A stretch of 64,000 bases of DNA, taken from a bacterium. GTDB taxonomy: Bacteria > Patescibacteriota > Dojkabacteria > JAKAPS01 > JAJZLI01. The position numbers and the translations under genes are program-made. Position 1 is the first letter of the stretch, and each line of letters begins with the position of its first letter. The notes beneath the pieces were generated by a model that was given only the letters and a program-made list of their open reading frames with translations, had not been told where the DNA came from and ran no database searches. The stretch is taken from positions 7,184 through 71,183 of the forward strand of contig JAJYFR010000004.1 in the NCBI GenBank assembly GCA_021785355.1. Direction: 5' to 3'. Positions 1 to 51,627 of the stretch are shown here, piece after piece.

Positions 1-3000
1 ACAGCAGCTACAACACTAGATCCTACAGATAAAGCTATAGAAGAGATAGCCATCCCTCCAAAAATACTTGTCATGGCACTATTTAAAAAAGCCATTCCAC
101 CTTTTTCACCTAATAAAGCTTCCCAAAAACTTGGAGAAGTTATACTTGTATCTAACTGTAATATAAAGAAAGGTTCCATCACTTTACTCCCTAAAAACTC
201 ACCTGCTTTTCCAAATGTATCTGCTATAAAAGATTTTTCTGAGACTCTTTTAAATATAGCCCAGCCTATTCCTCCTGTTGCACCTATAGCTATTCCTGCT
301 ACAGGCCCTAAAAAATATCCAGAAACTACAGCAAGCAGAATTGCAGGATTCATACTTTCTCCTAAAAATTTAGTTGCAGTACCTACACCTACTTTTCCTA
401 ATGCTGTATCTATTATTAAAAATTTAGGATCTATATTTTCTAAATAAGATAATCCCCATTTAAAACTAGTATACCCTAATGTCACTGCTGCAAAAGCAGG
501 TAAAGTTGTTGCTCCAAAAGCTACAGAAAGTAAAGTTCCTCCAAACAAACCACTATTAAAAGCTTTCATTAAATCTTCTGTGCTTAGTTTTGTAATAAGG
601 GAAGTAGATCTCATACTAGCAGCTACTTTTCCTACAGAACCAAGACCTGATTCTTGAATTGTTCTAAAAGCTTCTTTTCCTAACTCTAATTTAGGAATAC
701 TACTAGATATAATATTAGGATCCTTCAAAAGATCTAAACTGTCTACAAATCTTGTTCCAGGGGTTAGGGTTATTCCTTCAAATATTTTGTCAGGAGAAAT
801 ATCTGTTAAGCTTAAATTCTTTATATAATCAGAATTTTTAGCCATATCTACAATCTCTTGATCTGAGAAACCTATTTTTTTAGCAGCTTCTACAAAATCA
901 GAATACTTCATTTCTTCTATATTAATTCCTCTACCTTTAAAAAAGTCTTTAACGGAAGTATCTGTTACTACAGAGAAACGATTTGATATTATTTCTTTTG
1001 ATATTATTTTTTTTGCTGCCCCTTCATCTATAAATCTAATTGCTCTTGGATCTTTTATGATATCTGCAGTTCTCCTCATTGCATCTATTTGAGTATTTAC
1101 TGTCTTAATTCTTAATCTACTATTATCTAGGTTAATTTTAGATTTTTCTATTTTTTTTAGATCTTCTTCTTGTAAACCTGAGGTTTTGATTATGTGCTCT
1201 CTTGCCACCTTATCAATAAAACCTGAAGCATCTCCATGTATAGCTTTATCCCAAAGAGCACCCACATTAGTATCTTTACTTAAAGTATCTACTAATCCAC
1301 TATCTAAACTTCTTCCTGAAATATCTTTTAAGTTTTTTAGATTCTCTTCCAAATTTTTACTTATATCTACTTCATTTACATTTGCAAAAATAGTCCTTGG
1401 GGCAAGGGGGTCATATCTATATAAAAGATCCTGTCTTGAATAAAAATCTGCTCTTCTATATTCATCAAACATTTTTTGAACATGAGCTATATCAGGTTTT
1501 ATTTTATCTCCTTCTAAATACTTAACAAGATCCATTCTATCTATCTCCTCAGCGGGTATCCCAAGTTTTACTAACTCTTCTTTTAAACTAACTTTTCCTA
1601 AATTTTTCCACTCATTAAAAGGAACATTTTTTAATCTTAAATCTTTTATATCTTTTAAAGGTTCTAATTTAGGATCTTCTTTTACTATAAAACTAGAAGC
1701 TCTTTTTTCATAAATATTTATAGCTAATGACATTCCTCCTGTAACTACTCCCACTAATAACCCTAATGGTCCACCGACTAGTCCTACCCCTATTAAAGCT
1801 CCTCCTCCTGCAAAACCTAATCCAGTATGTAGAGCATCATACAAAGATATATCTGAAATACTATGCAAAACAGAATCTTCAAATAAAGATGCTTTTATAA
1901 AATCTGCTACTGAACCTGTTATTAAACCTGCACCAAAGACAACTAATCCTATAAAAGGATTTGAGATGAAAAATAAGGAAACTATTCCCGATACTCCTCC
2001 AAATTGAAAAAGATACTCTGATTTAAATAAAGAAATTCTAAATTCACTTGCACCTATTGCAGATAATTCTTCATAACTACCCGCAAGTCTTCCTACTACT
2101 AAATAGTCTATAGCTTTTATAGCAGATGTTCCTATAAAAATACCTGCAAATATTAAAGGGGCATTAGCTATTCCCAAGAAAGCAGCAATACCTGCACCTA
2201 AAATACCTGTTGAAAATCCAAAAGTTGTAGATTTAAAAACAACTTCAGTAGTACTCAAAGACCTCTCAATCATTGAAGAGTTTATTCTTTCTATAAGATT
2301 AGCAGTTAATGGATTTTGCTCTGAAAAAAAAGAGGTGAAATCTACTAAAAATTTTGATGTAAAATATGCACCTCCTACAACAGCACCTAGTAAAGGATTA
2401 GAAAGTATAATGCCTGTTATTAAACCTGGAATAAGAGCCTCTACTCCATCCTTTAAAATAAGCTTCCCTACTCCCAAGGCAAATTTAAAACTATCTATGG
2501 ATATAAATACTTTTTCTGTAAGACCTCCACTTACATTTCTTAGTATAGAATATGCAAATTCTCCATCTCCCACATTTTTTGCAACATATAAAAGAGCTTT
2601 ATCTACAAAATATCTCCCCACAAATACAACAGCAGCAGGGAGTGCTTCTATAAAATCTATGAATTTTAAAAGATTCCTCTTTTTAACCTTCTTATCTCTA
2701 CGTGTTACTAAATTTGGATTTTTTTTATCCTTTCCTTTTTGTAATCCTATTTGAAATGGTTTAAAGTTTATTTTTAAAACTCTTTTATTTGTAGTTGTAA
2801 AAACTTCTCCAAACTTATCCTCCCATTGTTTAAAATCTAATGCTCCTAAAGTTGAAAATGAGAATTTTTTAGATTTTTCAGGATATAATAACCTATTAGT
2901 ATGTCTAAGTCCTGTTGCTGTAGGAGAATATTTATCTCTAGTTAAACCTTGGTTTTTAGGAGATGCAAGAGTATTTATTGTTCCTAAATAATCTCTAGTG

Positions 3001-3803
3001 TTCTGATCTATAATACTCCTTAGGGCAGGATTTTTTGTCCTTGCAATCCCTGCTGACCACAGATTTCTATCCCTAGTAGCTACAAAATATTTTTCCCATT
3101 CAGAAATAGCTTTCCAACTAGAAGGCATTGAGAATATACTGGACTTTCTTTTATACCTGCCTTTTTTATTAGATAATATAAAATTAAAAAGCTCTTGTCT
3201 TTTAAATTTACCATCATCCATTGGAGGAGGCATATATGCCTCTCCTTTAGCATCTTCTAATATAGCTATTCTATTATCAACTATGACTGGACGTAATTTT
3301 TCGTCTAGCTGATACATGTAACCATGGGTATATAGAGATTCTAATTGACTCCTTATAGCATTTGCATAAATAGGTTTTCTTAATTCTTTTTTTAAACCAT
3401 CTATTCCAAATATATATTTAGGAGCACCTTTTCCTTTAAAAGCTTGAGGGTAGAAATGTTTAGATATAGCAGGAGCGAGAGCCTTTGCTAAAAGATCAGC
3501 TTCTCTTTCTTTAAAATTGGACTTATATGGCTTATAACTAGCTTTTTTAAATTCTTCTTTTAAATTTTGAGATACGGTTAGTTTTATATATGTTTTTACA
3601 TAAGATTCTTTTACTAACCTTGATAAAACATTGTCCTTGTCAGGAGATAAGCCATCAGGAAGATCTCCTCCTGTATAACCTGAATAGGGGGAAGTAAGTT
3701 TATCTAAACTTAAACCTTTAGACCTTAAATCCCTTTCTAGGTCACTTAATTCGTAATACTCATTTGTATATACACTTATTATTTTCTTTTTTAATTCATC
3801 CAT
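1..3803 (-). CDS. Giant multi-pass membrane protein (>1260 aa); start at ATG 3803..3801, C-terminus beyond the window start
   Basis: Manual minus-strand translation from ATG 3803 (MDELKKKIISVYTNEYYELSDLERDLRSKG...) appears to run open to position 1. Only short low-complexity antisense ORFs are listed on the plus strand (73..447, 1186..1443, 2335..2754). The central region has several glycine-rich TM helices (GLITGIILSNPLLGAVVGGAYF, GILGAGIAAFLGIANAPLIFAGIFIG, GLGFAGGGALIGVGLVGGPLGLLVGVVTGG). No ATPase or other catalytic motifs recognised. Confidence 0.5.
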   Translation of the reverse strand, partial: MDELKKKIISVYTNEYYELSDLERDLRSKGLSLDKLTSPYSGYTGGDLPDGLSPDKDNVLSRLVKESYVKTYIKLTVSQNLKEEFKKASYKPYKSNFKEREADLLAKALAPAISKHFYPQAFKGKGAPKYIFGIDGLKKELRKPIYANAIRSQLESLYTHGYMYQLDEKLRPVIVDNRIAILEDAKGEAYMPPPMDDGKFKRQELFNFILSNKKGRYKRKSSIFSMPSSWKAISEWEKYFVATRDRNLWSAGIARTKNPALRSIIDQNTRDYLGTINTLASPKNQGLTRDKYSPTATGLRHTNRLLYPEKSKKFSFSTLGALDFKQWEDKFGEVFTTTNKRVLKINFKPFQIGLQKGKDKKNPNLVTRRDKKVKKRNLLKFIDFIEALPAAVVFVGRYFVDKALLYVAKNVGDGEFAYSILRNVSGGLTEKVFISIDSFKFALGVGKLILKDGVEALIPGLITGIILSNPLLGAVVGGAYFTSKFLVDFTSFFSEQNPLTANLIERINSSMIERSLSTTEVVFKSTTFGFSTGILGAGIAAFLGIANAPLIFAGIFIGTSAIKAIDYLVVGRLAGSYEELSAIGASEFRISLFKSEYLFQFGGVSGIVSLFFISNPFIGLVVFGAGLITGSVADFIKASLFEDSVLHSISDISLYDALHTGLGFAGGGALIGVGLVGGPLGLLVGVVTGGMSLAINIYEKRASSFIVKEDPKLEPLKDIKDLRLKNVPFNEWKNLGKVSLKEELVKLGIPAEEIDRMDLVKYLEGDKIKPDIAHVQKMFDEYRRADFYSRQDLLYRYDPLAPRTIFANVNEVDISKNLEENLKNLKDISGRSLDSGLVDTLSKDTNVGALWDKAIHGDASGFIDKVAREHIIKTSGLQEEDLKKIEKSKINLDNSRLRIKTVNTQIDAMRRTADIIKDPRAIRFIDEGAAKKIISKEIISNRFSVVTDTSVKDFFKGRGINIEEMKYSDFVEAAKKIGFSDQEIVDMAKNSDYIKNLSLTDISPDKIFEGITLTPGTRFVDSLDLLKDPNIISSSIPKLELGKEAFRTIQESGLGSVGKVAASMRSTSLITKLSTEDLMKAFNSGLFGGTLLSVAFGATTLPAFAAVTLGYTSFKWGLSYLENIDPKFLIIDTALGKVGVGTATKFLGESMNPAILLAVVSGYFLGPVAGIAIGATGGIGWAIFKRVSEKSFIADTFGKAGEFLGSKVMEPFFILQLDTSITSPSFWEALLGEKGGMAFLNSAMTSIFGGMAISSIALSVGSSVVAA

Positions 3804-4503
3804 TTATATAATTGTATACATTTTCATAAATAGTTTGATTAGAATAGAATAAAGATAGATCCTCCTCTCTAAACAAACCTTTTTCTATCACATTAAACAT
3901 TTTAAAAACATTACTTTCTTCTTGTAAATTATAAAAAAAACTAGAAGCTCCTTCAAAGTTAAAAAAATCCCTTATCTTATTAAGAATAACTATATCTTTT
4001 ATATATTTAAATCCTGAAAGACCTTTATATCTATCCAGGTACAAGAAATTCTCATCTTTTGTAATATTAGGAATATATGATATATCTAAAAAATTATCTT
4101 TAGACAAATTTGCATCTGTTTCTATAGAAATAGGAATATTTTGTGTATTATATATATTTTTACTTAGAATAAGCTTCTCTCCTTCTTCAGAAAGAAATAG
4201 GTCTAAAAAATCTTTATCAAAAAATTCATAGAGAAAAGAATAGTTATAACTTTCTTTATTTTCTCTTAACACAATATCTTCTATTGCACCGTATAGATAA
4301 TCATATAAAGGTTCATTTATATCATCAAAAGATAAAATGAAGTCTTCTTTTTTTAAAGAAAATAGAGAATTAAAAGAATCTATATCGCCAAAAGCTTTTA
4401 TAAACTCTGAAAAAAGATAAAAGTTATATCCAAAATTTTTGTTATAGAAATCTCTTAATATCATCTCTAGGATCCTAATGATTTTCTTGCATTTCCAGTC
4501 CAT
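3796..4503 (-). CDS. Hypothetical protein (235 aa), operonic between the VirB6-like gene and the giant membrane protein gene
   Basis: Complete ORF. Its stop overlaps the start of the downstream giant ORF by 8 nt and its start overlaps the upstream gene by 37 nt. Acidic, Phe/Tyr-rich, no recognisable motif. Confidence 0.45.
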   Translation of the reverse strand: MDWKCKKIIRILEMILRDFYNKNFGYNFYLFSEFIKAFGDIDSFNSLFSLKKEDFILSFDDINEPLYDYLYGAIEDIVLRENKESYNYSFLYEFFDKDFLDLFLSEEGEKLILSKNIYNTQNIPISIETDANLSKDNFLDISYIPNITKDENFLYLDRYKGLSGFKYIKDIVILNKIRDFFNFEGASSFFYNLQEESNVFKMFNVIEKGLFREEDLSLFYSNQTIYENVYNYING

Positions 4504-6020
4504 TTTCTTAAACTCGAATATGGCTGAGCAAAACCTCTCTTTAGTTCTGTTGCATAAGAAGAGAAATCATAACCCAATGCCTTAGTAGCATCTGCAATTA
4601 TCTTTGGTATCATTACAAAAAGTGCTATTGATATCAAAAGTCCTATTGTGTTTCCTTGTTGGGAACTAAAAATTGAGCCTAAACCTAATAAAGGAAGTGT
4701 ATTTCCATTAGAAAGCCCCGTAATTGAATTTTGAAGATAATATATAAGGTTAAACATTGTATATGTCACGACATAAATAAGTATAGCTTTTGACATACCT
4801 TTAAAAAAACTCCAAGTAGCTTTACTTTGTCCAGGAACAGAACCTAGAAGAAACATGAAAGGTGCAGCTATTGGTAGAAAAAGAAAAATAAGATATCCTT
4901 TTAAAAGTTGTATTATTATTTTAAACACAGTAAATAAAAGTATAACTGCAACTATAAAAACTATAATGCTGTCAGCTGCACCACCATTATGAATAATTCC
5001 TCCTATAGCTGAAAAAATATAGTGTACCCCCCCTGTTCCATCTGGCAAATTATTTATAACAGAACCTGTCCCTTGTAAAGCAGTCTTCATGTTATTTCCT
5101 GTAACTGCCCCATAAACACTAAAAATATAACTTCTAGAGGAAAATGCAGTTGGAAAATTAAAACTACCCGTGTTAAGAGATGTAAATATAGAATAGATTA
5201 ACCCTAGTAATATATTCATCAAATCTATCATAAAACCTCCTATAGCATAACTAAAAGTTATAAGAACAATAGCGGCCATTATATTAGGGAGTGCACTCAT
5301 AAATGTTATAGGAACCTGTCCTCCTACTTTCCCTCCTACAATTATCATTATTCCTGTAAAAAGAATTATAAGTATTAGAAGTAAATAAGATATGTTTCTA
5401 GATACTGTCCAAATATTATAAACAGGTGATAGAAAAGAAAACCCATAAACTGGACCTGACAGTTGAGATGCTGCATAAGTAGAACTTGTTAAACCTGATC
5501 TTTTATATAAATAAGCAAAATACCCAACTCCACTTTCAGGTTGAGTTGTATACATTGAACTTACTAAAGAATTCGCTTCACCAAAGGCCCCATAACCTCC
5601 TGTATAGTTGTATCCTGTAGTACTAGAACTACTAGCTTGTGTATAGTTTCCTAAGATAGCTATAGCACCCGATTGAAATAGTGAAGGAGTAAATCCACAT
5701 GACTCCCAAACTGAAAGTCCTGATCCATTAACAGGTGCACATTGATTTAGGGTCGTTTGCTGAGAACTAGTAGTTGTTTGCGCAAACATTTGTCCTGCAA
5801 AAAGAACTCCTAAGATTACTAAAAAAATAGGAATACTTTTAATATTAATAGAACTTTTTTGTCTTAGATTAGAATGTGTGCTATTTTCTAATATTTCTAC
5901 AGCTTCTGTTTTATATAAAGAAAGTTTTTTAGATATTATTTTTGATTTTAGTAAAAATATAGAAAATTTAAGCTTTTTCTCTTTTAAAATATTCTTATAG
6001 TATTTGTTTATTTTATTCAT
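4467..6020 (-). CDS. VirB6/TrbL-like polytopic membrane protein with N-terminal signal/anchor
   Basis: 517 aa with an N-terminal hydrophobic segment ending ...FAGQMFAQ. A Cys-containing Ser/Thr-rich ectodomain (CAPVNGSG...CGFTPSLFQSGAIAILGNYTQ) is followed by at least six TM helices. It shares the motif FTPxL...AIAxxxYTQ and overall architecture with ORF 54938..55876, which sits beside VirB4-like ATPases. Confidence 0.4.
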   Translation of the reverse strand: MNKINKYYKNILKEKKLKFSIFLLKSKIISKKLSLYKTEAVEILENSTHSNLRQKSSINIKSIPIFLVILGVLFAGQMFAQTTTSSQQTTLNQCAPVNGSGLSVWESCGFTPSLFQSGAIAILGNYTQASSSSTTGYNYTGGYGAFGEANSLVSSMYTTQPESGVGYFAYLYKRSGLTSSTYAASQLSGPVYGFSFLSPVYNIWTVSRNISYLLLILIILFTGIMIIVGGKVGGQVPITFMSALPNIMAAIVLITFSYAIGGFMIDLMNILLGLIYSIFTSLNTGSFNFPTAFSSRSYIFSVYGAVTGNNMKTALQGTGSVINNLPDGTGGVHYIFSAIGGIIHNGGAADSIIVFIVAVILLFTVFKIIIQLLKGYLIFLFLPIAAPFMFLLGSVPGQSKATWSFFKGMSKAILIYVVTYTMFNLIYYLQNSITGLSNGNTLPLLGLGSIFSSQQGNTIGLLISIALFVMIPKIIADATKALGYDFSSYATELKRGFAQPYSSLRKWTGNARKSLGS

Positions 6021-6071
6021 AAAAACTTGTCTTTGGGTTTAATATATTATTATAAACTAATTTTAAAATTT

Positions 6072-6731
6072 TTAAAGTAGATCTTTTCTGTTTTTATTAG
6101 TTTTTTTTAAACTTTCTTTGTATCTGTATTCTTCTATCTTTTTATGGTTACCTGATAAGAGAATTTTAGGTACTTTTTTCTCTAAAAAAACTTCAGGTCT
6201 TGTATATTGAGGGTATTCTAATAAATCATTTTCAAAAGATTCGCTCTCTAAAGAATCTTTATTTCCTAAGACTCCAGGAAGAAGTCTAGTTATTGAATCT
6301 ATTAAGCATAAAGTAGGAAAATCACCAGAAGATAGTACAAAATCACCTAAAGATATTTCTTCGTCTACGAAATTTAAGAATCTTTCATCAAAACCTTCAT
6401 ATTTACCTGAAAATATAGTTATATTTTTTTTTAAAGAGAGTTCTTTTGCTTTTTTTTGAGAATATTTTTTTCCTGAAGCACTAAGCATTATAGAATAAGT
6501 ATCTTCTTTTATTGAGCTTAAAGCTTTAAATAGTACATCTACTCTCAATACCATTCCAGCTCCACCTCCATATGGAGGTGAATCTAAAGAACCTCTTTTA
6601 TCAAAAGAAAAATCCCTTAGATTAAGATTATCTATCTGGATGATATTGTTTTTTATAGCATTTCCAATAATTCCAAACCCTTCTGCATTTAGAAGTAGCT
6701 CTGGATATAAAGAAAATGTGTTAAATTTCAT
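6072..6731 (-). CDS. trmD: tRNA (guanine37-N1)-methyltransferase
   Basis: TrmD hallmark motifs DSPPYGGGAGMVLRVD (SAM-binding knot) and C-terminal LLSGNHKKIEEYR; length 219 aa. Confidence 0.9.
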   Translation of the reverse strand: MKFNTFSLYPELLLNAEGFGIIGNAIKNNIIQIDNLNLRDFSFDKRGSLDSPPYGGGAGMVLRVDVLFKALSSIKEDTYSIMLSASGKKYSQKKAKELSLKKNITIFSGKYEGFDERFLNFVDEEISLGDFVLSSGDFPTLCLIDSITRLLPGVLGNKDSLESESFENDLLEYPQYTRPEVFLEKKVPKILLSGNHKKIEEYRYKESLKKTNKNRKDLL

Positions 6732-7055
6732 TTATATCAAACTTTCTATTTGTTTTACAAATTCCTCTTTTGGTCTAACACCTATAAGTCTTGACACTTC
6801 TTTTCCTTCTTTAAAAAACACAATATTAGGAATGCTCATAATGTTATATTGAGAAGCAATATCTGTACTAGCATCTACATCTAACTTACATACTTTAACT
6901 TTATCTTTAAACTCTTCTGATAATTCTTCTATTATAGGAGAAATCATATGACAAGGCATACACCAATCTGCCCAAAAATCCACTATAACTAACTTTTCTT
7001 TTTCATCTAAAACTTCACTTTTAAATGTTTGAGAATCTAATACTGTATGAGCCAT
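6732..7055 (-). CDS. trxA: Thioredoxin
   Basis: 107 aa with active-site variant WADWCMPCHMI (the CxxC of WCGPC) and a thioredoxin fold-like layout (VIVDFWADWC...FFKEGKEV). Confidence 0.85.
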   Translation of the reverse strand: MAHTVLDSQTFKSEVLDEKEKLVIVDFWADWCMPCHMISPIIEELSEEFKDKVKVCKLDVDASTDIASQYNIMSIPNIVFFKEGKEVSRLIGVRPKEEFVKQIESLI

Positions 7056-7092
7056 AATTTTAAAAAATAAAATAATTATAATTTATTATAGC

Positions 7093-7130
7093 ATAAAAAA
7101 AGGTGGGTTTTTATGTCCACCTTCTTTTAT
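7093..7130 (-). terminator. Rho-independent terminator downstream of the pilin gene 7147..7713 (minus-strand sense)
   Basis: Perfect 7-bp inverted repeat AAGGTGG(7100-7106)/CCACCTT(7117-7123) with a 10-nt loop. On the minus strand the stem is followed by TTTTTTTATG (complement of 7092-7100). The plus strand has CTTTTAT after the stem. Confidence 0.65.
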
Positions 7131-7146
7131 TTAAACTTAACTAATA

Positions 7147-7713
7147 TTAGTTATACTCATAAGCTATTGGGTATCCTGTTGTATTAGTTGTTGCACCTTT
7201 TTGCATACCTGTTGCAAATACTAGAACTTTTGTTCCACTAGCATTTTCTGCTACGTAATAATTAACATTTCCTCCAACTCCTGGATTTGATGTTAAATAA
7301 TTTTTCATAGTAGGTACTGCTGTTTCGAATGCAGCTAAAGTTTCACAAGAATCTGCTCCTGATACTACTACAGTTGCAACTTGTGTAGGAAGTGTTCCTG
7401 TTGTTGTTGTTGCACAACTTGGGGTTCCTGTTGTATTGCCTTGTATATCATATCCATAAGCTGTTCCTGATGTAACAATTGCAGGTGATGTTAATTGAGG
7501 TAATGTAGGTAAAGCCCCTTTATTATCAACTGTGTATTGCTGTATAGATTTAAATATTTGTTGTATATTACTTGTCATTGTTGTATTGTTTGAGTCAGCA
7601 ATTCTTCCTACTGGATTTAATGCTACAAATACTACCAATGCTAAAATAGCAATAATAACGATTACAATCAAAATTTCTATTAAGGTAAAACCTTTATTAT
7701 TAAATTTTTTCAT
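7147..7713 (-). CDS. Type IV pilin (major pilin candidate)
   Basis: N-terminus MKKFNNKGFTLIEILIVIVIIAILALVVFVAL is a class III signal peptide (G|FTLIE with Glu+5) plus a hydrophobic alpha1 helix. Strong SD AAGGAGGTGA lies 10 nt upstream and a strong terminator downstream. 188 aa, Thr/Gly-rich C-terminal domain. Confidence 0.8.
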   Translation of the reverse strand: MKKFNNKGFTLIEILIVIVIIAILALVVFVALNPVGRIADSNNTTMTSNIQQIFKSIQQYTVDNKGALPTLPQLTSPAIVTSGTAYGYDIQGNTTGTPSCATTTTGTLPTQVATVVVSGADSCETLAAFETAVPTMKNYLTSNPGVGGNVNYYVAENASGTKVLVFATGMQKGATTNTTGYPIAYEYN

Positions 7714-7775
7714 ATTATCTCACCTCCTTTTTGTATACATATAATTTATATTAGTGCACTTTTTTTGTCAATAAA

Positions 7776-8306
7776 TCAAAAGTTATACTCTGAATATGCA
7801 ACAGAAAAACCTTTTTTATCTACACTTTTACCTTTACCTAAATCATTAGAAAAAACAACGACTTTTGTTCCATATATATTTTTAGCTACATAAAAGTCAC
7901 CTTGTGGAAGATTTTTGTTTAGATATTTTTGAATTTCAAAATATATTGGAGTATTCATAGATATATTTAAACACATATTTTCTTTTGCTCCTGCCTGTAT
8001 ACAGTTAGGTATTCCTTGTGTATTATTATTTATATTAAAACCTGATCCTATACCACTTGTTGAAATATTATTTAATATTAAAGGACTTGATATAGCAGGA
8101 ATTGAAGGAGGTAACATTCCGTGATTTTGAAGAGAATAATCTTCTATTGCTGTAAGAAGAGTCTCTACTCCATTTTCTCTTTGAGTATTATATGTATCAG
8201 AAACAGCTTTAACAGGATTAATTTCAAAAAAAACAATTAAAACAAATAGTGCTATTGTTATTAACAATATTAATATATCAGAAATATTAAGCTTTTTTAT
8301 TTTCAT
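7776..8306 (-). CDS. Pilin-like paralog lacking the canonical prepilin cleavage motif
   Basis: N-terminal hydrophobic segment (ILILLITIALFVLIVFF) without G-F-T-L-I-E. Its C-terminus (GTKVVVFSNDLGKGKSVDKKGFSVAYSEYNF) is clearly homologous to the C-terminus of the adjacent pilin (GTKVLVFATGMQKGATTNTTGYPIAYEYN). Confidence 0.5.
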   Translation of the reverse strand: MKIKKLNISDILILLITIALFVLIVFFEINPVKAVSDTYNTQRENGVETLLTAIEDYSLQNHGMLPPSIPAISSPLILNNISTSGIGSGFNINNNTQGIPNCIQAGAKENMCLNISMNTPIYFEIQKYLNKNLPQGDFYVAKNIYGTKVVVFSNDLGKGKSVDKKGFSVAYSEYNF

Positions 8307-8363
8307 AACTATATATTTAATATAGCATAACCTATATTTTTTTCAACTAAGTCTATTGTAAAG

Positions 8364-8372
8364 TTATCCACA
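8364..8372 (+). promoter_or_regulatory. Perfect DnaA box (TTATCCACA) 65 bp upstream of dnaA
   Basis: Exact match to the consensus 9-mer TTATCCACA at 8364-8372 in the dnaA promoter region. Confidence 0.5.
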
Positions 8373-8436
8373 ATCTGATATTCTCTTTATTTACTTACCT
8401 GCCCCTAAATATTTTTATATTTTTTATTAATATATT

Positions 8437-9771
8437 ATGCAAAATAATATCAATGCTATATGGAAGATAGCCTCTTCTCAAATAAAGATAAAAATTACAG
8501 ACAAAAACTTTAAGATATGGTTTGGTAAAGTTAAACTAGACAGTATTGATAAAAATATAGCAACAATATCTTCTCAAAACTCTTTTACATCAGATTATAT
8601 TCAAAAAAATTATTTTAATATAACAAAAAATGCACTAAAAGATGCATATGGAGAAGATTTAGATATTGTTTTTAAAACAAGACAAGAAGATATAAAAATA
8701 GAAGATGAGCCTATCTTTTATAGTAATGAAAGTATAAAAAATGACATTAATTCAAACCTAAATCCTAAATATACATTAGATAGTTTTATTGTAGGTTCAT
8801 CTAATAGATTAGCTCATGCTGCTTCACTTGCTATAGTTGATTCTCCTGGTATTTTATATAATCCTTTTTTTATTTATGGAGGAGTTGGTTTAGGAAAAAC
8901 ACATTTAATGCAAGCTATAGGAAATGAGTTGATAAAAAGAAATCCTGATATTAAAATTTCTTATATGAGTAGTGAAACTCTCTTAAATGATTTTATAAAC
9001 TCAATAGTTAAAGGTAAAAATGAGAATTTTAGAAAAAAATATAGAGAAAATGATATTTTAATAATAGATGATATACAGTTTATTTCTGGCAAAAAAGGTA
9101 TACAAGAAGAATTTTTTCACACATTCAATACTTTACAGCAATCTAATAAGCAAATCATATTAGCTTCAGATAGACATCCTAAAGATATTGAAAATTTAGA
9201 AGAAAGGTTAGTTTCTAGATTTGAAGGAGGAATGGTTGCAGATATATCTAATCCTGATGAAGAAATGAGGATAGCTATTTTAAGAAAAAAATGTGAAGAA
9301 AAAAACTTAGTATTAGAAGAAGATATCATAAATATGATAGCTGAAAATATAAAATCTAATATTAGAGAGTTAGAGGGTGTTCTTACTAAAATAATAGCAA
9401 CAGAAAAAGTTTTAAATAAAAAATTAAATAAAGATGAAATATCTAATTTAATAGGGATAAATATTAAAAGAAGAAGTAAAATTTTAAAACCTAAAGATAT
9501 AATAATTAATGTTTGTGAACAATTTGGAATATCTCAAAGAGAAATAATAGGAGATAGAAGAACTAATAGAATTGCTCTTCCAAGACAGATAGCAATGTAT
9601 ATATTAAGAAAAGACCTAAATTTACCTTTAGTTGAAGTGGCAAATATCCTTAAGAGAAAAGATCATACTACAGTTTTGCATGCTGTGGATAAAATAGAGG
9701 ATTTAATAGATAATGATGTTTATTTAAAAGATAAAATAAGTAGTATACGTAGCTCTTTACAGCGATATTAG
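8437..9771 (+). CDS. dnaA: Chromosomal replication initiator protein DnaA
   Basis: Walker A GGVGLGKTHLMQAIGNE, Walker B ILIIDDIQFISGKKGIQEEFFHTFN, sensor/box VII region ILASDRHPKDI and a C-terminal DNA-binding domain (ALPRQIAMYILRKDLNLPLVEVANIL). 444 aa. Confidence 0.95.
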   Translation: MQNNINAIWKIASSQIKIKITDKNFKIWFGKVKLDSIDKNIATISSQNSFTSDYIQKNYFNITKNALKDAYGEDLDIVFKTRQEDIKIEDEPIFYSNESIKNDINSNLNPKYTLDSFIVGSSNRLAHAASLAIVDSPGILYNPFFIYGGVGLGKTHLMQAIGNELIKRNPDIKISYMSSETLLNDFINSIVKGKNENFRKKYRENDILIIDDIQFISGKKGIQEEFFHTFNTLQQSNKQIILASDRHPKDIENLEERLVSRFEGGMVADISNPDEEMRIAILRKKCEEKNLVLEEDIINMIAENIKSNIRELEGVLTKIIATEKVLNKKLNKDEISNLIGINIKRRSKILKPKDIIINVCEQFGISQREIIGDRRTNRIALPRQIAMYILRKDLNLPLVEVANILKRKDHTTVLHAVDKIEDLIDNDVYLKDKISSIRSSLQRY

Positions 9772-10080
9772 TAAATGTGTAAATATTGTGTAAATATTGT
9801 GCATACAATGTTTATAATTTGTTTTTTTTGAGGATAGTTTATAAAAACTTATACATATAAATATTAGTAATATATAAAACTATTCACATAAAAAAATCTT
9901 TGTTTTATAATAATAAATCAAAAAATATGTTTTATTTGCAAAAGATATTTAAGTTGTATATTATAAACAAGAAATACACAGTAATTTTTACTTTAACAAC
10001 AATAAAAATTACTAATTTTTAGAGTTATAAACATGTACTACTAAATACTACTATATTTTATATATAATAATAAAAGAAGA
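9772..10080. other. Putative chromosomal replication origin (oriC), the AT-rich dnaA-dnaN intergenic region
   Basis: 309 bp of non-coding, extremely AT-rich DNA between dnaA and dnaN. It contains a tandem 13-bp direct repeat (TGTAAATATTGTG x2 at about 9778-9803) and degenerate DnaA-box-like 9-mers (CTATTCACA at 9884-9892, 7/9). Confidence 0.45.
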
Positions 10081-11217
10081 ATGGATATAAATATAATAAG
10101 AGAAAATTTCATAGAACTCTTAAATTTTAATATAAAAACATATACATCAAAAGTAAGTATTCCTATACTTTCAAATGTATATATTGAAGCTAGAAATGGT
10201 AAATTGATATTAAAAAGTACAAATTTAGAAAATAGTGTTATTTCTTTTTGTGGAGTTGAAATAATAAAAGAAGGAGAAACTACTGTTAATATTAAAAATA
10301 TATATGATTTTGTAACTAATTTAAAATCAGAAATAATAAATATTAAATTTGAAAATAATACACTTACTATATCTGATAGTTTAAATAAAATATCTTTAAA
10401 TACTATACCAGCAGATGAATTTCCTGATATACCTGATAATGATAGTGATTTATTATTTAAAGTTCCAGCTTATGATTTTTCTTATGCTTTAGATAAAGTT
10501 ACATTTGCTACTTCAACTGATTTATCTAAATTAGTTTTATCTGGAGTTTTTTTTGAGATCAAAGATAATTTTTTAAAATTAATAGGTATTAATGGTTTTA
10601 GATTCTCTAGTTTTAATATAAAAGGTTTAAAAAATATAAAAAAAGATATTATTGATAATATAATAGTTCCATCATCTTCTTTAGATAATATTTCTAAAAT
10701 AATAAAAGATTTAGGTTTAGATAATGATAGTTTTGTTTCAGTTTATCTTGTTGGAAAAAATAATCAATTAATATTTGAAATAGATAATGTTAAATTTTTA
10801 GTTAGATTAATTGAAGGTAAATATCCTGATTATAATAAAATTTTTCCTGAAGATTATGAATGTAGTTTTTCTTTAAATGTAGAAGAGTTTAAAGATGTTA
10901 TAAAACTTTCTTCTATTTTTAAATTAAAAGATATATCTAGAATTTATATAGAAATAGATCCTAAAGAAAATGTAATTAAATTTCAATCATCTTTAAAAGA
11001 AGTTGGAGAAAGTATTAGTATAATAAAAACTAAAATAAAAGGAGTTAAATCTACTGTTAGTTTTAATTCTAAATATATAATGGATTTATTAAATAATTAT
11101 GAAGCTGAAGATATAGAAATAAGTATAAATTCTTCTTCTTTAAAAAAAGTATCAAAGTTTAATGAAAAGAAAAATGATGATTTTGTATATCTTGTAATGC
11201 CTCTTTTGGAAAGATAA
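10081..11217 (+). CDS. dnaN: DNA polymerase III beta sliding clamp
   Basis: 378 aa immediately downstream of dnaA. The N-terminus (INIIRENFIELLNFNIKTYTSKVSIPILSNVYIEARNGKLILKSTNLENSV) is typical of beta clamp domain I, and the size fits the three-domain organisation. Confidence 0.85.
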   Translation: MDINIIRENFIELLNFNIKTYTSKVSIPILSNVYIEARNGKLILKSTNLENSVISFCGVEIIKEGETTVNIKNIYDFVTNLKSEIINIKFENNTLTISDSLNKISLNTIPADEFPDIPDNDSDLLFKVPAYDFSYALDKVTFATSTDLSKLVLSGVFFEIKDNFLKLIGINGFRFSSFNIKGLKNIKKDIIDNIIVPSSSLDNISKIIKDLGLDNDSFVSVYLVGKNNQLIFEIDNVKFLVRLIEGKYPDYNKIFPEDYECSFSLNVEEFKDVIKLSSIFKLKDISRIYIEIDPKENVIKFQSSLKEVGESISIIKTKIKGVKSTVSFNSKYIMDLLNNYEAEDIEISINSSSLKKVSKFNEKKNDDFVYLVMPLLER

Positions 11218-11219
11218 TC

Positions 11220-11504
11220 TTAAAAAGATCCTACTTTAATATTAATATCTATTATATTATTTTCTTTATATTTTTTAATTATTTTTTTAATTAATATATT
11301 TTTTGTAAGTAATATTTCTTGAGAAACATTTGAATTTTTAACTTTAAGTATAATTATATTATCTTTTAAATCTATAAACTTTATATATTTTTTTGAATTA
11401 ATACTAAGTACTGAGTCTAGAGAATCATAAACAATATCCCTTATTTCTATTTTTGACTGTATTTTATTTAATGAAATTTTAGATATGGATATCTTTTTAA
11501 GCAT
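11220..11504 (-). CDS. DciA-like / DUF721-family small protein (putative helicase-loading factor)
   Basis: 94 aa. The C-terminal pattern KFIDLKDNIIILKVKNSNVSQEILLTKNILIKKI...IIDINIKVGSF resembles the DUF721/DciA signature (G-L-x-V-x-V-x-S-x-W-x-x-E-L ... I-x-x-I-x-x-R-V-G) and the gene abuts dnaN. Weak in-head similarity only. Confidence 0.4.
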   Translation of the reverse strand: MLKKISISKISLNKIQSKIEIRDIVYDSLDSVLSINSKKYIKFIDLKDNIIILKVKNSNVSQEILLTKNILIKKIIKKYKENNIIDINIKVGSF

Positions 11505-11862
11505 TAGATATTTTTTTTATAAAATCTTTAGCTTTATTAAAATTCTCCATTTTAGTTAATTTAAAAATATTTAGAACATCATCTGAAGATACAGATTCTT
11601 TTCCTGCAAATTTTTTAATTTCAGAATCATCTAAATCTACACTTAATCTAAACCTATTAACCATATTGTTTAAAGGTTTTACTATATAGATTATATTTTT
11701 ATTTAAACAATTTTCACATCTTATATAAGCTATTGTTACATTTTCATTTTTATCTATAAGTTCTACTAAATTTTTATCATGAAATGCTCCACATTTCTCA
11801 CAATAAGAAGGTATAATATCTAATATCTCTTTTATATCTGGATTGTTTTTATTCTTTGCCAT
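11497..11862 (-). CDS. Zinc-ribbon hypothetical protein
   Basis: 121 aa with two CxxC pairs (CEKCGAF...CENCLNK). Confidence 0.45.
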   Translation of the reverse strand: MAKNKNNPDIKEILDIIPSYCEKCGAFHDKNLVELIDKNENVTIAYIRCENCLNKNIIYIVKPLNNMVNRFRLSVDLDDSEIKKFAGKESVSSDDVLNIFKLTKMENFNKAKDFIKKISNA

Positions 11863-11880
11863 ATATTTGATTATATAACA

Positions 11881-12990
11881 TTATGTCAATAAAGTTTTCT
11901 TTTTTTTGGAAATATTAGTAATAAAAGCTATTATTAAGAATACTATTAATATTGTAAAACCTAATATAATAGCTTTGTGAAAACCTGTTATTATTAATGC
12001 TATTATACCTATAACAGCAGTGAATAAATATTCTATAAAAGCTACTTTTTTTTGAGAAAATCCTAGATCTAATAATCTGTGATGCAGATGTCTTTTATCA
12101 TTTATATTTATTAATCCTAATAATGTTTTAGGTTTTTCTTCTATTATTCTGGATATTATTACCCAAAAAGAGTCTATAACAGGAATAGATAAAACCATCA
12201 TTGTTGAAGCTAGTTTAGCTCCTGAATAAATAGAAAGAATTGCTATTATAAAACCATAAACACTTTTTCCTGAAGCTCCTGAAAAAATTTTAGAAGGATA
12301 AAAGTTATAAAATAGAAATCCTATCAAGAGTCCAGCAAATATAAAACCCATAAAAGCCGTATCATATGTTTGAAAACGTATAGATAAAAGTCCTATTATT
12401 ATTGCAATTATAGATAAATTTCCTTCTGCAAGACCGTCTGTACCTGCCATCCATTTAACAGCATTTATGATAATTAATATCCAAATTATAGAAAGGAAGA
12501 AAGAAACAAAATATAGATGAACCCCTAAAAAATTAAAAGGTATCTGATTTAAAGAAAAGATTCCATATAAAGGTTTTGATATATAATAAATATCTAAACC
12601 AGAGAGAGTTACTATGAGAGTTGCTATAATTTGTATAATCAATTGAAGTTTAGCACTTATATCAAAAATATCATCTATTATACCTCCTAAAAATAACACA
12701 GAAACACCTATTATAAAGAATAATAAATGATAATTTATTTTCAAAAAGAAAAGTATTAAAAATATAAAAGGAAAGATTACTGCAATTCCTCCTAATTTTA
12801 ATTTAGGATCTTGATGAATCCTTCTTTTAGCAGTAGAGTCTAACCTTAAACCTTGAGGTAGATCGTAAACTTTAAATTTTTTAGAAAAATAACCTATTAA
12901 AGGAGTTAGAAGAAAAGAAATTAAAAAACTTTCTAAAAAAATAGGTAAAAAAGATATATATTTTAAATACACTATAAGACTATTATTCAT
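11881..12990 (-). CDS. Glycosyltransferase family 4 polyprenyl-phosphate hexosamine-1-phosphate transferase (WecA/MraY family)
   Basis: 369 aa polytopic membrane protein with the family motif INAVKWMAGTDGLAEG (NxxNxxDGxDGLA) and an HHRLLDLGFSQKKV segment. Confidence 0.7.
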   Translation of the reverse strand: MNNSLIVYLKYISFLPIFLESFLISFLLTPLIGYFSKKFKVYDLPQGLRLDSTAKRRIHQDPKLKLGGIAVIFPFIFLILFFLKINYHLLFFIIGVSVLFLGGIIDDIFDISAKLQLIIQIIATLIVTLSGLDIYYISKPLYGIFSLNQIPFNFLGVHLYFVSFFLSIIWILIIINAVKWMAGTDGLAEGNLSIIAIIIGLLSIRFQTYDTAFMGFIFAGLLIGFLFYNFYPSKIFSGASGKSVYGFIIAILSIYSGAKLASTMMVLSIPVIDSFWVIISRIIEEKPKTLLGLININDKRHLHHRLLDLGFSQKKVAFIEYLFTAVIGIIALIITGFHKAIILGFTILIVFLIIAFITNISKKKKTLLT

Positions 12991-13424
12991 AGAGACATTT
13001 GTATGATTTTATACACATCTAAAACTGTAAAAAAAATAAAGGCTATACCCAAAAAATGGCTTAGGAAATACATTCCTTTGACCTTATAGTAGGTTTTGTA
13101 TGACGTGTAAAAAAATAAAAAGTATCCAAAAATTAAAACCGATAGAATTAAAAATAATGAGACTTTAGGATATAAAACAAACTTATTATTGAAAAATATT
13201 ATAGGTATATTTCCAGGAAGGTGGGAATAGTAAATTATAAGTAAAATTATATAATTTATTATTAAAAATAAATTTATAAAGAGATAAAACCATGTAAAAA
13301 AATTCTTCCAAAAAGATATATTTTTTATTTGTTCTACATAATTATTGATAAAATTTTTATTTTTTAACAATAAAGATTCTTTTTTTATGTTTAAAGGTAT
13401 TTGATTTAATTTTTTATATTCCAT
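12987..13424 (-). CDS. Hypothetical small polytopic membrane protein
   Basis: 145 aa with 3-4 hydrophobic helices; overlaps the GT4 gene by 4 nt (operonic). Confidence 0.45.
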   Translation of the reverse strand: MEYKKLNQIPLNIKKESLLLKNKNFINNYVEQIKNISFWKNFFTWFYLFINLFLIINYIILLIIYYSHLPGNIPIIFFNNKFVLYPKVSLFLILSVLIFGYFLFFYTSYKTYYKVKGMYFLSHFLGIAFIFFTVLDVYKIIQMSL

Positions 13425-13551
13425 CTTTGTTTAAGTATAACACAATAATATATCTATATTTATAGGTATTTTATATTATATTTTCTTATGTATTTTTATC
13501 ACTTATATTAGAAAATATAAAGATTATTTATAAAAATATAAGATTAATTTA

Positions 13552-15540
13552 CTAGTTATAGAAGTAAGTGTAAGTGTTGTTAGAGTTATAAATAATATTG
13601 TATAAAAATAGTTTATTTTTTGAAGTTATAAATCCGTTTATTATATTGGGAGTATTAACTAATTTTTGTAATTTATTAAATATATTTATATTTACATAAA
13701 TAACCCCATTATTTTTTATATGAAAAGCACTTTCTGTCAAAGAATTTATAACTAAAGCTTGGCTACTTAAAGAGTTTTTAGTTGTAGATAGGTTTAAATC
13801 TCCAGGGTTATTAGTATATATATTTTTTATTATCTGGCCTTTATCAAGTGATATAAAATCATAACTAACTATATTTAGAGAGTTGTTTTTATTTTTCTTA
13901 TTGTAATAAGCAATCATATAGGATTTTTTACCAGAAATTATATTTTTTAATATACTCTCGTTATTATAAAAAGTTTGATATATATTGATATTTTCTGTTT
14001 CTATATTTATTAAATTATTATAAAAAGTTTTAAGAAGAGAGGTTTTTATGAGTTTTGTTTTATTTAAAAGGTTTATATTTTTATTGTAGTAAAAATTGTT
14101 TATATAAATTTTTTTACTTTTCCCTATATTTTCTATTAAACTTTTATAAGTAATAGCTGTTTGTATAGTATCTTTTATATAACCATTTTCTTCTTGATAA
14201 TATTTAAATAAAACCATTTTATTTTCATAAAAATAAACATTTTTTAGTACTGGACTTAAAAAACTAGTAAGATATAGAATTTGAGAATCTTTTGTGCTAA
14301 TTTTTGAATTTATATTTATAGCTTTATTGTAATTATGATTTTGGATAAGAGACATTTCATATACAGTATTATTTTCTATATATTTGTAATCTTTATATAT
14401 TGTATAGGTATAAAATCCTATACATATAAGTAATATAATTATTATTATAGAAAATAAAGGTTTTCTTTTTTTCAATTTCTTTTTTTTAGTATCATAATCT
14501 ATTAAATAATTCTTTTTTATATTATCAAAATTAGAAATATCTAGTTTTGATAAGGATTCTTTTTTTACGATTTCTTTTTCATCTTTATCTTGATTTTGAG
14601 GAATATTAATAATATTTTTAGTTTGAATTAAAACTTTAGGCTTTTTTAATACATCTATTAATTTATAATCCAGAGTTTTCTTTAATCCTTCCTCAAGAGA
14701 AGTTTTAGGTGTCCATTCTTCATAAACATTAATAGAATTTTTTATTCTATCTTCTAACCTCTCTTCTCTACTCTCTTTATGTGTTATAGGAAATCCTGTA
14801 ATATCAGATATTCTGAAAGCTAAAGAGATATTTGATATATCTTCTTTGTTTGCAAGAACAAATTCACCTTCTTTGTCTGAAAATAAAATATTTGCTATTC
14901 CAAAAAGAATATCTTCAAGATATATATAGTGAAAAAAAGAATTTTCTTTATTTATAGAGATTTTCTCTTTTTCTTTTATACTTTCTATTATTTCGTTAAT
15001 AGGTGTTTTTATAAAATTATCTAATCTTTCTCCATAAACCTCCCCTACTTTTATTAAAGAGACTTTAGAACCTTCTTTCTCTTTTAATGTTTTTTTCTCT
15101 ATACTTTCCGTGTATTCTAAAAAATATTTTGATTTTTCTTTTGATAAATTTAAAACAACTCCAATATTGGCAGAATAAAATTTTGAAATTTTGAAAAAAA
15201 TATCTAATAATTCTAAATTTTTTTGCACATTTATTTCTTCTTTATATTCAAAATTTCCTAAAAATAAAGAGAAATTTAAAGAGTTTAATTTCTTTAAAAT
15301 ATCTAATATATCTATATTTGATAAAACGTCTAAAATTTTAACTTCACCTTTAATATTTTTATCTTTAATACTTTTTATTTTTTTTATATTTTCAATATTT
15401 TTTCTTGTAATACTGTCAATTAAAAGTACATTTCCTCCTCCTAACAAAATCTCTTCGGTAAGTTTTTCTCCTAAGAAATTTAACCCATTAAATATTAATG
15501 ATGTAGGTAAATTTTTTGTAAAAAAATTATTTTTGGACAT
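13552..15540 (-). CDS. Membrane-anchored protein with degenerate NAD-dependent epimerase/dehydratase-like N-terminal domain
   Basis: 662 aa. The N-terminal approx 290 aa carries relics of the SDR-epimerase fold (KVGEVYGERLD, FFHYIYLEDILFGIANILFS) but lacks an intact GxxGxxG. A single TM (LFSIIIIILLICIGFYTYTIY) is followed by an approx 290-aa Asn/Tyr-rich extracytoplasmic domain. Confidence 0.4.
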   Translation of the reverse strand: MSKNNFFTKNLPTSLIFNGLNFLGEKLTEEILLGGGNVLLIDSITRKNIENIKKIKSIKDKNIKGEVKILDVLSNIDILDILKKLNSLNFSLFLGNFEYKEEINVQKNLELLDIFFKISKFYSANIGVVLNLSKEKSKYFLEYTESIEKKTLKEKEGSKVSLIKVGEVYGERLDNFIKTPINEIIESIKEKEKISINKENSFFHYIYLEDILFGIANILFSDKEGEFVLANKEDISNISLAFRISDITGFPITHKESREERLEDRIKNSINVYEEWTPKTSLEEGLKKTLDYKLIDVLKKPKVLIQTKNIINIPQNQDKDEKEIVKKESLSKLDISNFDNIKKNYLIDYDTKKKKLKKRKPLFSIIIIILLICIGFYTYTIYKDYKYIENNTVYEMSLIQNHNYNKAININSKISTKDSQILYLTSFLSPVLKNVYFYENKMVLFKYYQEENGYIKDTIQTAITYKSLIENIGKSKKIYINNFYYNKNINLLNKTKLIKTSLLKTFYNNLINIETENINIYQTFYNNESILKNIISGKKSYMIAYYNKKNKNNSLNIVSYDFISLDKGQIIKNIYTNNPGDLNLSTTKNSLSSQALVINSLTESAFHIKNNGVIYVNINIFNKLQKLVNTPNIINGFITSKNKLFLYNIIYNSNNTYTYFYN

Positions 15541-15634
15541 TAATTAAGCTTATCAGTTTTACCTTTATAAGTAAATTATATTTAAGTTTTTGTGTTATAT
15601 AAATCAATTTGAAAACAAGAAAAATACAAAGGGT

Positions 15635-15664: not shown

Positions 15665-15696
15665 ATTGGCAGTTACGTTAAAAGTTTGCTAAACAT

Positions 15697-48439: not shown

Positions 48440-48442
48440 AAT

Positions 48443-49111: not shown

Positions 49112-49113
49112 TA

Positions 49114-51625: not shown

Positions 51626-51627
51626 TT

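Follow-up and report, generated by a model that had tools for sequence, protein, structure and literature searches.

The 64,000-nt stretch of DNA analysed here (contig JAJYFR010000004.1, positions 7,184 to 71,183; hereafter the window) comes from a genome of the Patescibacteria (Candidate Phyla Radiation, CPR) and carries near its start a gene for a polytopic membrane protein of 517 aa, F517, which we assign with high confidence to these bacteria's type IV secretion system (T4SS). With moderate confidence we conclude that F517 is an extremely divergent homologue of VirB6, and it is the best, if still unproven, candidate for the 'missing' VirB6 of Microgenomatia-type lineages. The gene heads an operon that also encodes an orphan membrane protein of 1458 aa (the giant) and lies 40 kb from the main T4SS locus. 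The account that we regard, by a modest measure, as the probable one is that F517 is an extremely divergent VirB6, that the system is split into two loci and that the operon near the replication origin is its envelope part. A preliminary description of this DNA had singled out F517 for its similarity to p321, a shorter polytopic protein of the main locus; the link of F517 to the T4SS is well supported, and it rests on synteny in other genomes and not on that similarity.

The features on which the argument turns are the following (coordinates are those of the window).

4467..6020, minus strand: open reading frame (ORF) of F517 (517 aa), a polytopic membrane protein and candidate VirB6-type subunit of the Patescibacteria T4SS
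46502..51126, plus strand: first ATPase module, with a PrgI/VirB3-like 645-aa protein, a TrsD-like 222-aa protein and VirB4-like ATPase 1 (Pfam PrgI, TraG P-loop; NCBIfam TrsD, E 5.1e-7)
54715..54957, plus strand: VirB2-like T4SS pilin (80 aa), directly upstream of p321 (Pfam TrbC, E 3.1e-7; T4SS_pilin, E 7.1e-7)
54938..55876, plus strand: p321, which has 312 aa when counted from the ATG at 54938; short and polytopic, with a leader ending in FAQ and an ectodomain that contains two Cys
55860..58306, plus strand: second ATPase module, with a 99-aa protein of two transmembrane (TM) segments in the VirB3 position, a TrsD-like 172-aa protein and VirB4-like ATPase 2

F517 relatives lie between pilin and VirB3/VirB4 genes

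Synteny was scored in 80 F517 loci outside the clade of the window genome (the window clade), using profiles made from the window's own T4SS proteins; upstream counts refer to the 53 loci whose sequence extends 5 kb or more upstream and downstream counts to the 47 loci where it extends 8 kb or more downstream. The canonical order begins with a VirB2-like pilin array (median 4 genes), a protein of ~900-1200 aa and often a gene of ~300 aa on the opposite strand, after which comes F517; beyond F517 lie a large soluble protein encoded on the opposite strand and then, at a median of 6.2 kb, PrgI (VirB3-like), a TrsD-like protein and VirB4. The counts were as follows.

T4SS pilin, upstream of F517: 52 of 53 loci
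T4SS pilin, downstream of F517: 0 of 47 loci
PrgI, downstream of F517: 24 of 47 loci
TrsD-like protein, downstream of F517: 19 of 47 loci
VirB4, downstream of F517: 16 of 47 loci
PrgI, TrsD-like protein or VirB4, upstream of F517: 0 loci

F517 is the sole consistently polytopic protein of these canonical loci (median 6 hydrophobic segments). Its slot between the pilin and the VirB3/VirB4 genes, together with its polytopic nature, gives it the position and character expected of VirB6. A VirB2/VirB3/VirB4 neighbourhood is found for the F517 family and for p321 alike, the F517 of the window being the exception, 40 kb from the ATPases.

The family, of 61 or more proteins, comprises about 60 clusters in the protein database, all of them hypothetical proteins of Patescibacteria. 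A scan of one genome per species with the invariant core motif [IV][TE]FSYAI[AGV]G found relatives encoded in at least 508 species genomes, the named carriers being Curtiss-, Woese-, Pace-, Shapiro-, Gottesman- and Levybacteria, that is, Microgenomatia-type lineages. VirB6 homologues have been reported to be scarce in Microgenomatia, 'suggesting extreme sequence divergence' (PMC12102498), and F517 fits that gap. The F517 of the window retains every invariant residue of its family, and an identical protein has been recorded on contigs as long as 757 kb.

Some further observations concern the records and the neighbours of the family. Precomputed annotation lists PF27507 for one distant member (P0036), and part of the F517 family may already be covered by a very recent Pfam family. 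Many public records of metagenome-assembled genomes (MAGs) that hold a Patescibacteria-type F517 locus (L013-L087) bear the title 'uncultured Pseudomonadales' or 'Gammaproteobacteria' (in one case 'Woesearchaeota'), and these titles look like placeholder or wrong taxonomy. Three unannotated protein families recur around F517 in the canonical loci and have no counterpart in the window: a soluble protein of ~300 aa just upstream, often on the opposite strand (31/53 loci), a soluble protein of ~1000-1400 aa on the opposite strand just downstream (loci L007-L089), and a family of ~1100-1400 aa (loci L007-L089), many members of which end in the M23-peptidase motif GNTGNSTGPHLHFE.

Likeness of F517 to VirB6 and to p321

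F517 begins with an N-terminal helix of 60 aa, which is followed by a hydrophobic leader with FAQ at its end, an ectodomain containing two Cys and about 6 TM helices; by hydropathy, 89 family members have 4-7 TM segments (median 6). No Pfam or NCBIfam domain was found in it. Its AlphaFold (AF2) model has a predicted local distance difference test score (pLDDT) of 64.8 overall, and the long helices of the TM region reach 77-93. The 60-aa N-terminal extension (5841..6020) is conserved in the window clade and predicted to form one long helix (pLDDT about 80-89), and distant relatives begin with an ordinary signal peptide of ~30 aa ending in AQ. With this extension ahead of it, the leader is perhaps not a classical cleaved signal peptide, and in the window clade it may act as an uncleaved anchor. 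Of the signal peptide that F517 and p321 had been said to share, the hydrophobic leader ending in FAQ is indeed present in both. The Cys-containing ectodomain motif and the polytopic body that had been noticed in the two proteins are visible by eye, and both families of the clade carry the same succession of a leader ending (V)FAQ, LN(Q)C, a second Cys, FTP and ...NxYTQ.

Comparison of the F517 model with 350,542 PDB chains in Foldseek gave as best match TrwI, the VirB6 of R388 (8rtd_L, E 0.06, probability 0.96, TM-score 0.43; the identity of the chain was checked against trwI fetched from R388). Three further TrwI chains were in the top 10, and VirB6 was the only recurring PDB match. At the profile level, the F517 profile aligned with an 11-sequence profile of plasmid VirB6 in hhalign over 99 columns (E 5e-4, probability 31.5%), and an F517 alignment of 134 sequences gave a probability of 27% (E 6.8e-4). 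The match falls on the invariant GP(I/L)F...T..FF..W helix of VirB6 and takes in the invariant Pro387 of F517. As a control, profiles of the TM-rich and equally hydrophobic giant protein reached only E 0.008 to 0.14 and probabilities of 0.4-5% against the same VirB6 profile; p321 matched in the same region with a probability of 2% (E 0.024). Furthermore, two of the 36 F517-family members weakly match the NCBIfam Mycoplasma ICE (integrative and conjugative element) conjugal-transfer membrane family (E 1.5e-4), and the F517 profile gave no match when it was run against the sequences of the PDB. The preliminary name 'VirB6-like' is plausible and gains from the synteny elsewhere and from a best, if weak, fold match to TrwI/VirB6, but it finds no backing in the VirB6/TrbL models of Pfam and NCBIfam.

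The main T4SS locus (46502..58306) holds two tandem ATPase modules, the first consisting of the PrgI-like 645-aa protein, the TrsD-like 222-aa protein, VirB4-1, a 101-aa protein and a 996-aa protein, and the second of the 80-aa pilin, the polytopic p321, the two-TM 99-aa protein, the TrsD-like 172-aa protein and VirB4-2. The ORFs scanned showed neither a relaxase nor a coupling protein, and the similarity of the two-TM 99-aa protein to PrgI is not significant (6%). The order of pilin, p321, 99-aa protein, TrsD-like protein and VirB4 is the canonical one, with p321 in the slot that F517 occupies elsewhere.

This position is the strongest argument for a distant paralogy of F517 and p321, which we consider suggestive. 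The alignment that was to decide on the proposed paralogy left it at that level: pairwise BLASTP was not significant (E = 0.062), and the support from profiles depends on the alignment used. The 36-sequence alignment of F517 matched p321 in hhalign with a probability of 88.7% (E 2.6e-6, 255 columns). When a hidden Markov model (HMM) of the p321 family was run against 3340 ORFs from the fetched loci, the top 5 matches were all F517 members (E 1.8e-4 to 4e-3), and these matches lie on an invariant TM hairpin (ITFSYAIGGFMID vs LILSPYILSMLITFINV) and on the Pro-containing helix.

A side observation on the main locus concerns the PrgI-like gene (46502..48439), which contains at 47553..47979 a 156-nt tandem repeat of 2.7 copies, 93% identical, encoding an acidic segment of ~52 aa (INPYDNATVATPIDI.KD..PQEE.VEPQISNVSENDNIA.TQIDN.PVDES). 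The 645-aa protein ends in a CarboxypepD_reg-like beta-sandwich, and this domain and the repeat are both unusual for a VirB3-like protein.

A conserved eight-gene operon near the replication origin

Within 1..6731 every gene lies on the minus strand, co-oriented and tightly packed, and the three ORFs of the preliminary description (F517, a 235-aa ORF and the giant) were recovered at their coordinates and in this orientation. Since dnaA (8437..9771) and dnaN are both inside the window, the replication origin lies near the locus of F517 and the giant. The genes concerned, besides F517, are the following.

6072..6731, minus strand: trmD, a housekeeping gene, 51 nt upstream of F517
3796..4464, minus strand: c222 (222 aa, acidic, no TM segment), whose ORF extends to 4503 as 235 aa and whose stop overlaps the giant start by 8 nt
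1..3803, minus strand: first 1267 of the 1458 codons of the giant gene, an open frame; orphan polytopic membrane protein

Of the overlaps that had been reported for the 235-aa ORF, that with the giant start (8 nt) is real, but the one with F517 exists only if the first ATG (4503) is used. Gene callers and orthologues start c222 at the ATG at 4464, 2 nt after the F517 stop, and with this start the overlap of c222 and F517 disappears.

F517 is the first gene of a tightly packed operon of eight genes, with gaps or overlaps of at most 28 nt, which was followed beyond the window on a 165-kb contig of the European Nucleotide Archive (ENA; L001) that is identical to the window and reaches past its edge.

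Gene 1: F517, 517 aa, polytopic membrane protein
Gene 2: c222, 222 aa, no TM segment, predicted cytoplasmic
Gene 3: giant, 1458 aa, polytopic membrane protein
Gene 4: c280, 280 aa, one N-terminal TM segment
Gene 5: c762, 762 aa, signal sequence, NlpC/P60 domain; beyond the window
Gene 6: c233, 233 aa, one TM segment
Gene 7: c242, 242 aa, signal sequence, lysozyme/SLT-like; beyond the window
Gene 8: c133, 133 aa, one TM segment

At its 3' end the operon is followed by a 195-nt gap and an AbiEii-containing gene pair. The gene order and the site, after thioredoxin and trmD and beside dnaA, recur in three or more genomes (loci L005, L006, L010 and L011), the proteins being 30-60% identical; the same layout and site at this level of identity mark the operon as a conserved chromosomal one, as opposed to a mobile insert. 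On the conserved chromosomal position and the lack of phage matches, an origin from a prophage or mobile element was rejected. Promoter-like sites in 3600..8500 are no commoner than in shuffled sequence.

Two of the operon proteins carry domains of peptidoglycan hydrolases. The C-terminal domain of c762, a predicted secreted endopeptidase, is of the NlpC/P60 type (Pfam NLPC_P60, E 1.7e-7, 31.6 bits against a cut-off of 23; NCBIfam RipB, E 9.6e-6), with the catalytic Cys and His motifs DCSG and HVAIV intact in the sequence; its N-terminal ~590 aa received no fold assignment. In c242 we found a core of ~60 residues (CDPRFITAIWGQESTFG...C...C) that an iterated profile ties to the C-terminal domain of the large protein following the pilin arrays in canonical loci (E 8e-12), a link that direct phmmer of c242 against canonical-locus proteins and coarse whole-protein hhalign both missed and that the iterated profile alone finds. 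In this domain two Cys are invariant, as is a Glu within the motif W.(Q/E)E(S/T), and the domain belongs to the same two-Cys subfamily as the T4SS-locus domain. Against the PDB its profile has a phage cell wall hydrolase as best match (E 0.001) and a goose-type lysozyme at E 0.75, and weak matches of c242 to SLT_2 (E 0.011) and MltB (E 0.084) were also seen.

The proteins c280, c233 and c133 each have an N-terminal TM helix and no Pfam or NCBIfam match; by analogy, their single-TM architecture would be that of VirB8-like proteins. Orthologues of c222 were found in the window clade only, and it has no family match save a weak one to a PHROG of unknown function; as c222 has the same length as the main-locus TrsD-like protein, a TrsD-like identity was tried and dropped (probability 0.1%). 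The preliminary description had proposed a second module of the secretion system at this site. The hydrolase genes of the operon, an NlpC/P60 enzyme and a lysozyme-like protein akin to a T4SS-locus domain, lend it substance, but that this module cooperates with the main locus we only infer.

The giant protein

The giant had been described as longer than 1260 aa and as running off the window. Re-translation of 3803..1 gave a frame open to position 3 (1267 codons, no stop), and on L001, the source of the full-length protein, it has 1458 aa, 191 of them outside the window. Its parts are distributed as follows.

2679..3803, minus strand: residues 1-375, basic soluble N-terminal domain (from composition; net charge +32)
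1710..2675, minus strand: residues ~377-698, first Gly/Ala-rich TM cluster (from composition and family conservation)
549..1703, minus strand: residues 701-1085, charged helical soluble middle, poorly conserved (from composition and conservation)
1..539, minus strand: from residue 1089 on, the first part of the second Gly/Ala-rich TM cluster, which runs to ~1381 outside the window

The second cluster (1089-1381) is followed by a Ser/Thr-rich linker and a C-terminal domain of ~50 aa. In all, the protein has about 15 hydrophobic helices and no signal peptide, and its N-terminal domain, moderately conserved across the family, is probably cytoplasmic. The Gly/Ala-rich TM helices seen earlier thus form two clusters (~377-698 and ~1089-1381), which contain 12.6-13.7% Gly and 11.5-11.9 small-xxx-small motifs per 100 aa, compared with 2.3-4.9 in the soluble parts. 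The motif by itself does not define a family, and Gly-zipper families (PF05433, PF13441 and similar) gave no match, C19orf12 appearing at E 0.93 only. Conservation in the family peaks in the first TM cluster, where D383, K447, K451, D452, K484, D488, D634 and H659 are invariant. An AlphaFold model of residues 1-720 (pLDDT 43.6) is confident for residues 1-90 only.

When 1.84 billion representative proteins were searched exhaustively with HMMER, the giant family came to 9 members, the giant and 8 relatives, all at E <= 1e-30, and nothing weaker appeared; a word-indexed protein search returned the giant alone. With no known relatives beyond a narrow clade, the gene appears to be an invention of that clade. 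Neither the protein nor its family alignment has a match in Pfam, NCBIfam, PHROG or the PDB. A kinship of the giant with the secretion genes did not survive the remote-homology searches, which detected no relation to VirB6, F517 or any known family, and its reading as an extended VirB6 was rejected (hhalign probability 0.8% against F517, 5% against VirB6 and 0.1-1.1% for the TM clusters taken separately). Likewise, the two TM clusters gave no sign of an internal duplication (probability 13.6% over 30 columns), and no relation to the 996-aa main-locus protein was seen; the large proteins that flank F517 elsewhere are unrelated too, being soluble and free of TM segments. A short likeness of the C-terminal 'GE..KG..G' to the M23-peptidase ends of a neighbouring family (14 columns, 56.7%) was dropped, the C-terminal domain alone giving 0.4%. 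A phage tape-measure or tail module was also rejected: the giant has no PHROG match, and only the NlpC/P60 domain of c762 resembles tail-protein families.

Other genes of the region

The remaining observations lie outside the two T4SS-related loci. Type IV pilin-like genes at 7147..7713 and 7776..8306, between thioredoxin and dnaA, encode a 188-aa protein with an N_methyl motif and a 176-aa protein without Pfam match, and a PilB-type ATPase is encoded at 42472..44139; type IV pilus genes thus flank the same origin region as the operon. Past the window edge, downstream of the operon (L101, 19488..22283), an AbiEii-domain gene, preceded by its partner, and a PIN-domain gene paired with a small one flank the gene for ribosomal protein L25, and these are probably two toxin-antitoxin pairs. 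The guanine-cytosine (GC) content of the window is low (19-32%) and reaches its minimum of 19-22% in 10001..16000, the dnaN-to-hrcA region, a stretch that includes an unannotated 662-aa ORF (13552..15540). A 241-aa ORF at 60157..60882 has a TLMTC motif, read by eye, that is typical of a sortase catalytic site, and small secreted proteins adjoin it.

A proposed division of the secretion system between two loci

If these findings are put together in the way that we favour, the shortened relative p321 would hold the slot of F517 in the main locus of this clade, and the full-length F517 gene would have been relocated beside trmD and dnaA, at the head of the eight-gene operon. The origin operon would then supply the envelope-crossing half of the machine: a membrane platform of F517 and the giant, two peptidoglycan-cutting activities (c762 and c242) that may be the counterparts of the domain pair in the VirB1 proteins of monoderms (PrgK, CwlT), and single-TM proteins as a scaffold. 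ATPases, VirB3-like proteins and pilin would come from the main locus. For the giant, placed between the VirB6 candidate and the exported proteins and translationally coupled to c222, the role of a resident membrane platform of the same apparatus is the most economical guess from its context.

Several points weigh against this account. The hhalign comparison of F517 with p321 falls to 9% with a rougher 134-sequence alignment and to 5% with a clade-only one, the same TM core being aligned colinearly in all three runs. No match at E <= 1 to VirB6/TrbL (PF04610), PrgH or other curated T4SS models of Pfam and NCBIfam was obtained with F517, 36 family members or p321, and the same Pfam library detects TrwI at E 4.9e-50. 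Neither the fold match nor the profile match of F517 to VirB6 reaches conventional significance. Some 40 kb separate F517 from the ATPases in this genome, and functional coupling is assumed; c222, the giant, c280, c233 and c133 have no detectable relative in canonical T4SS loci. NlpC/P60 and lysozyme-like enzymes, finally, are common in ordinary wall-remodelling operons.

The missing model match and the sub-threshold likenesses would also suit a protein that belongs to T4SS loci without being VirB6, namely a Patescibacteria-specific factor for pilin insertion, maturation or assembly whose resemblance to VirB6 is a convergent similarity of helical bundles. F517 is indeed tied most tightly to the pilin arrays (52/53 loci), more so than to VirB4, and monoderm T4SSs normally have no VirB2 pilins, so that a pilin-bearing monoderm system may need new parts (PMC12857230). 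We nevertheless take this alternative to be possible but rather unlikely: VirB6 alone recurs among the PDB matches of F517, the profile match sits on the most conserved VirB6 helix, and canonical loci offer no other polytopic protein for the VirB6 role. A variant that keeps both the divergent VirB6 and the split T4SS would have the origin operon build the envelope part and the host interface around the giant, as a second channel or translocon that possibly reaches the host membrane or inserts into it; this we think unlikely.

A further reading separates the origin operon from the T4SS altogether and sees in it an operon for wall remodelling, division or a surface structure, with F517 recruited to a new job and p321 alone serving the secretion system. 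The distance of 40 kb from the ATPases, the housekeeping surroundings (trmD, thioredoxin, dnaA), the five of eight operon proteins lacking relatives in canonical loci, the generic nature of the two enzymes and the slot already filled by p321 all agree with it. We consider it improbable all the same, given that F517 retains all invariant family residues and that the c242 domain shares its two-Cys subfamily with the T4SS-locus domain; moreover, in Patescibacteria a site adjoining dnaA is typical for T4SS genes (PMC12102498), and those of Ca. Southlakia epibionticum are numbered 0006-0019 (PMC10633639). That the giant is instead an effector, delivered or exposed at the surface, such as a pore-former putting glycine-zipper helices into a host membrane, is very improbable: its zipper-rich TM clusters, its fast evolution and narrow distribution (9 of 1.84 billion), as typical of host-interaction proteins, and the epibiotic lifestyle of these bacteria (PMC10633639) would fit, but the number of hydrophobic helices (about 15) and the N-terminal domain, strongly basic and without signal peptide, point to a resident membrane protein, the conservation of the first TM cluster with its invariant charged residues fits a working membrane core, the gene is translationally coupled within the operon, and no toxin or Gly-zipper family matches.

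Under the favoured account of a split T4SS with an extremely divergent VirB6, the F517 family, at present unannotated, offers a concrete and testable candidate for the VirB6 gap, and its profile could join T4SS detection tools. Patescibacteria account for a large part of bacterial diversity and lead a life attached to other cells, and theirs is, to our knowledge, the only T4SS that is known to be essential for the growth of the bacterium that owns it. The split layout suggests that the machine is divisible into an ATPase/pilin locus and an envelope/hydrolase locus, and the giant stands out as a candidate lineage-specific part of the host interface.

Comparison with known systems

VirB6/TrbL (PF04610; TrwI of R388, PDB 7O3V and 8RTD) is, like F517, polytopic and encoded beside pilin, VirB3 and VirB4, and the location of R388 VirB6 at the base of the stalk fits a gene adjoining pilin arrays. 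At 517 aa, F517 is longer than TrwI (342 aa); in contrast to TrwI it carries, ahead of the TM bundle, a leader of secretion type and a Cys ectodomain, and it belongs to a monoderm host. The VirB6-like proteins of monoderms (PrgH of pCF10, Orf15 of Tn916, ConG of ICEBs1 and TcpH of pCW3), likened here by description, are polytopic and encoded beside VirB3/VirB4-like and wall-hydrolase genes. PrgH-type proteins belong to MPF_FATA/FA systems, to which Patescibacteria VirB4 is related (PMC12102498), but these systems have no VirB2 pilins, whereas F517 is tightly tied to pilin arrays, and the published PrgH profile finds very few Patescibacteria proteins.

The pair of hydrolases has its parallel in the VirB1-type enzymes of monoderms (PrgK, TraG of pIP501, CwlT), which combine a transglycosylase/lysozyme-like domain with NlpC/P60 or CHAP and are encoded beside the channel genes; the two are fused there, whereas the window clade has separate c762 and c242. 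The Rickettsiales, with their reduced genomes and dependence on another cell, have several VirB6-like genes, including ones for very large polytopic proteins with big hydrophilic inserts. These giants keep a recognisable VirB6 core, of which the 1458-aa giant shows none. Extended VirB6 proteins (PMC12857230) and dispersed Rickettsia T4SS islands (PMC12102498) have both been noted.

Within the Patescibacteria, pilin arrays are abundant in Microgenomatia, T4SS genes are often found in the vicinity of dnaA, and detection of VirB1 or VirB8 is rare (PMC12102498). The closest described system is that of Ca. Southlakia epibionticum (SEML1_0006-0019), which is essential, adjacent to the origin and without relaxase, and comprises a pilin array, VirB3, VirB4, TrsD and VirB6-like proteins as well as peptidase and lysozyme genes that adjoin virB4 and are themselves essential (PMC10633639, PMC12102498). 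In S. epibionticum these genes form one contiguous cluster, with a VirB6 that standard profiles recognise, whereas the window clade has two loci 40 kb apart, a VirB6 candidate beyond the recognition of such profiles and an added protein of 1458 aa.

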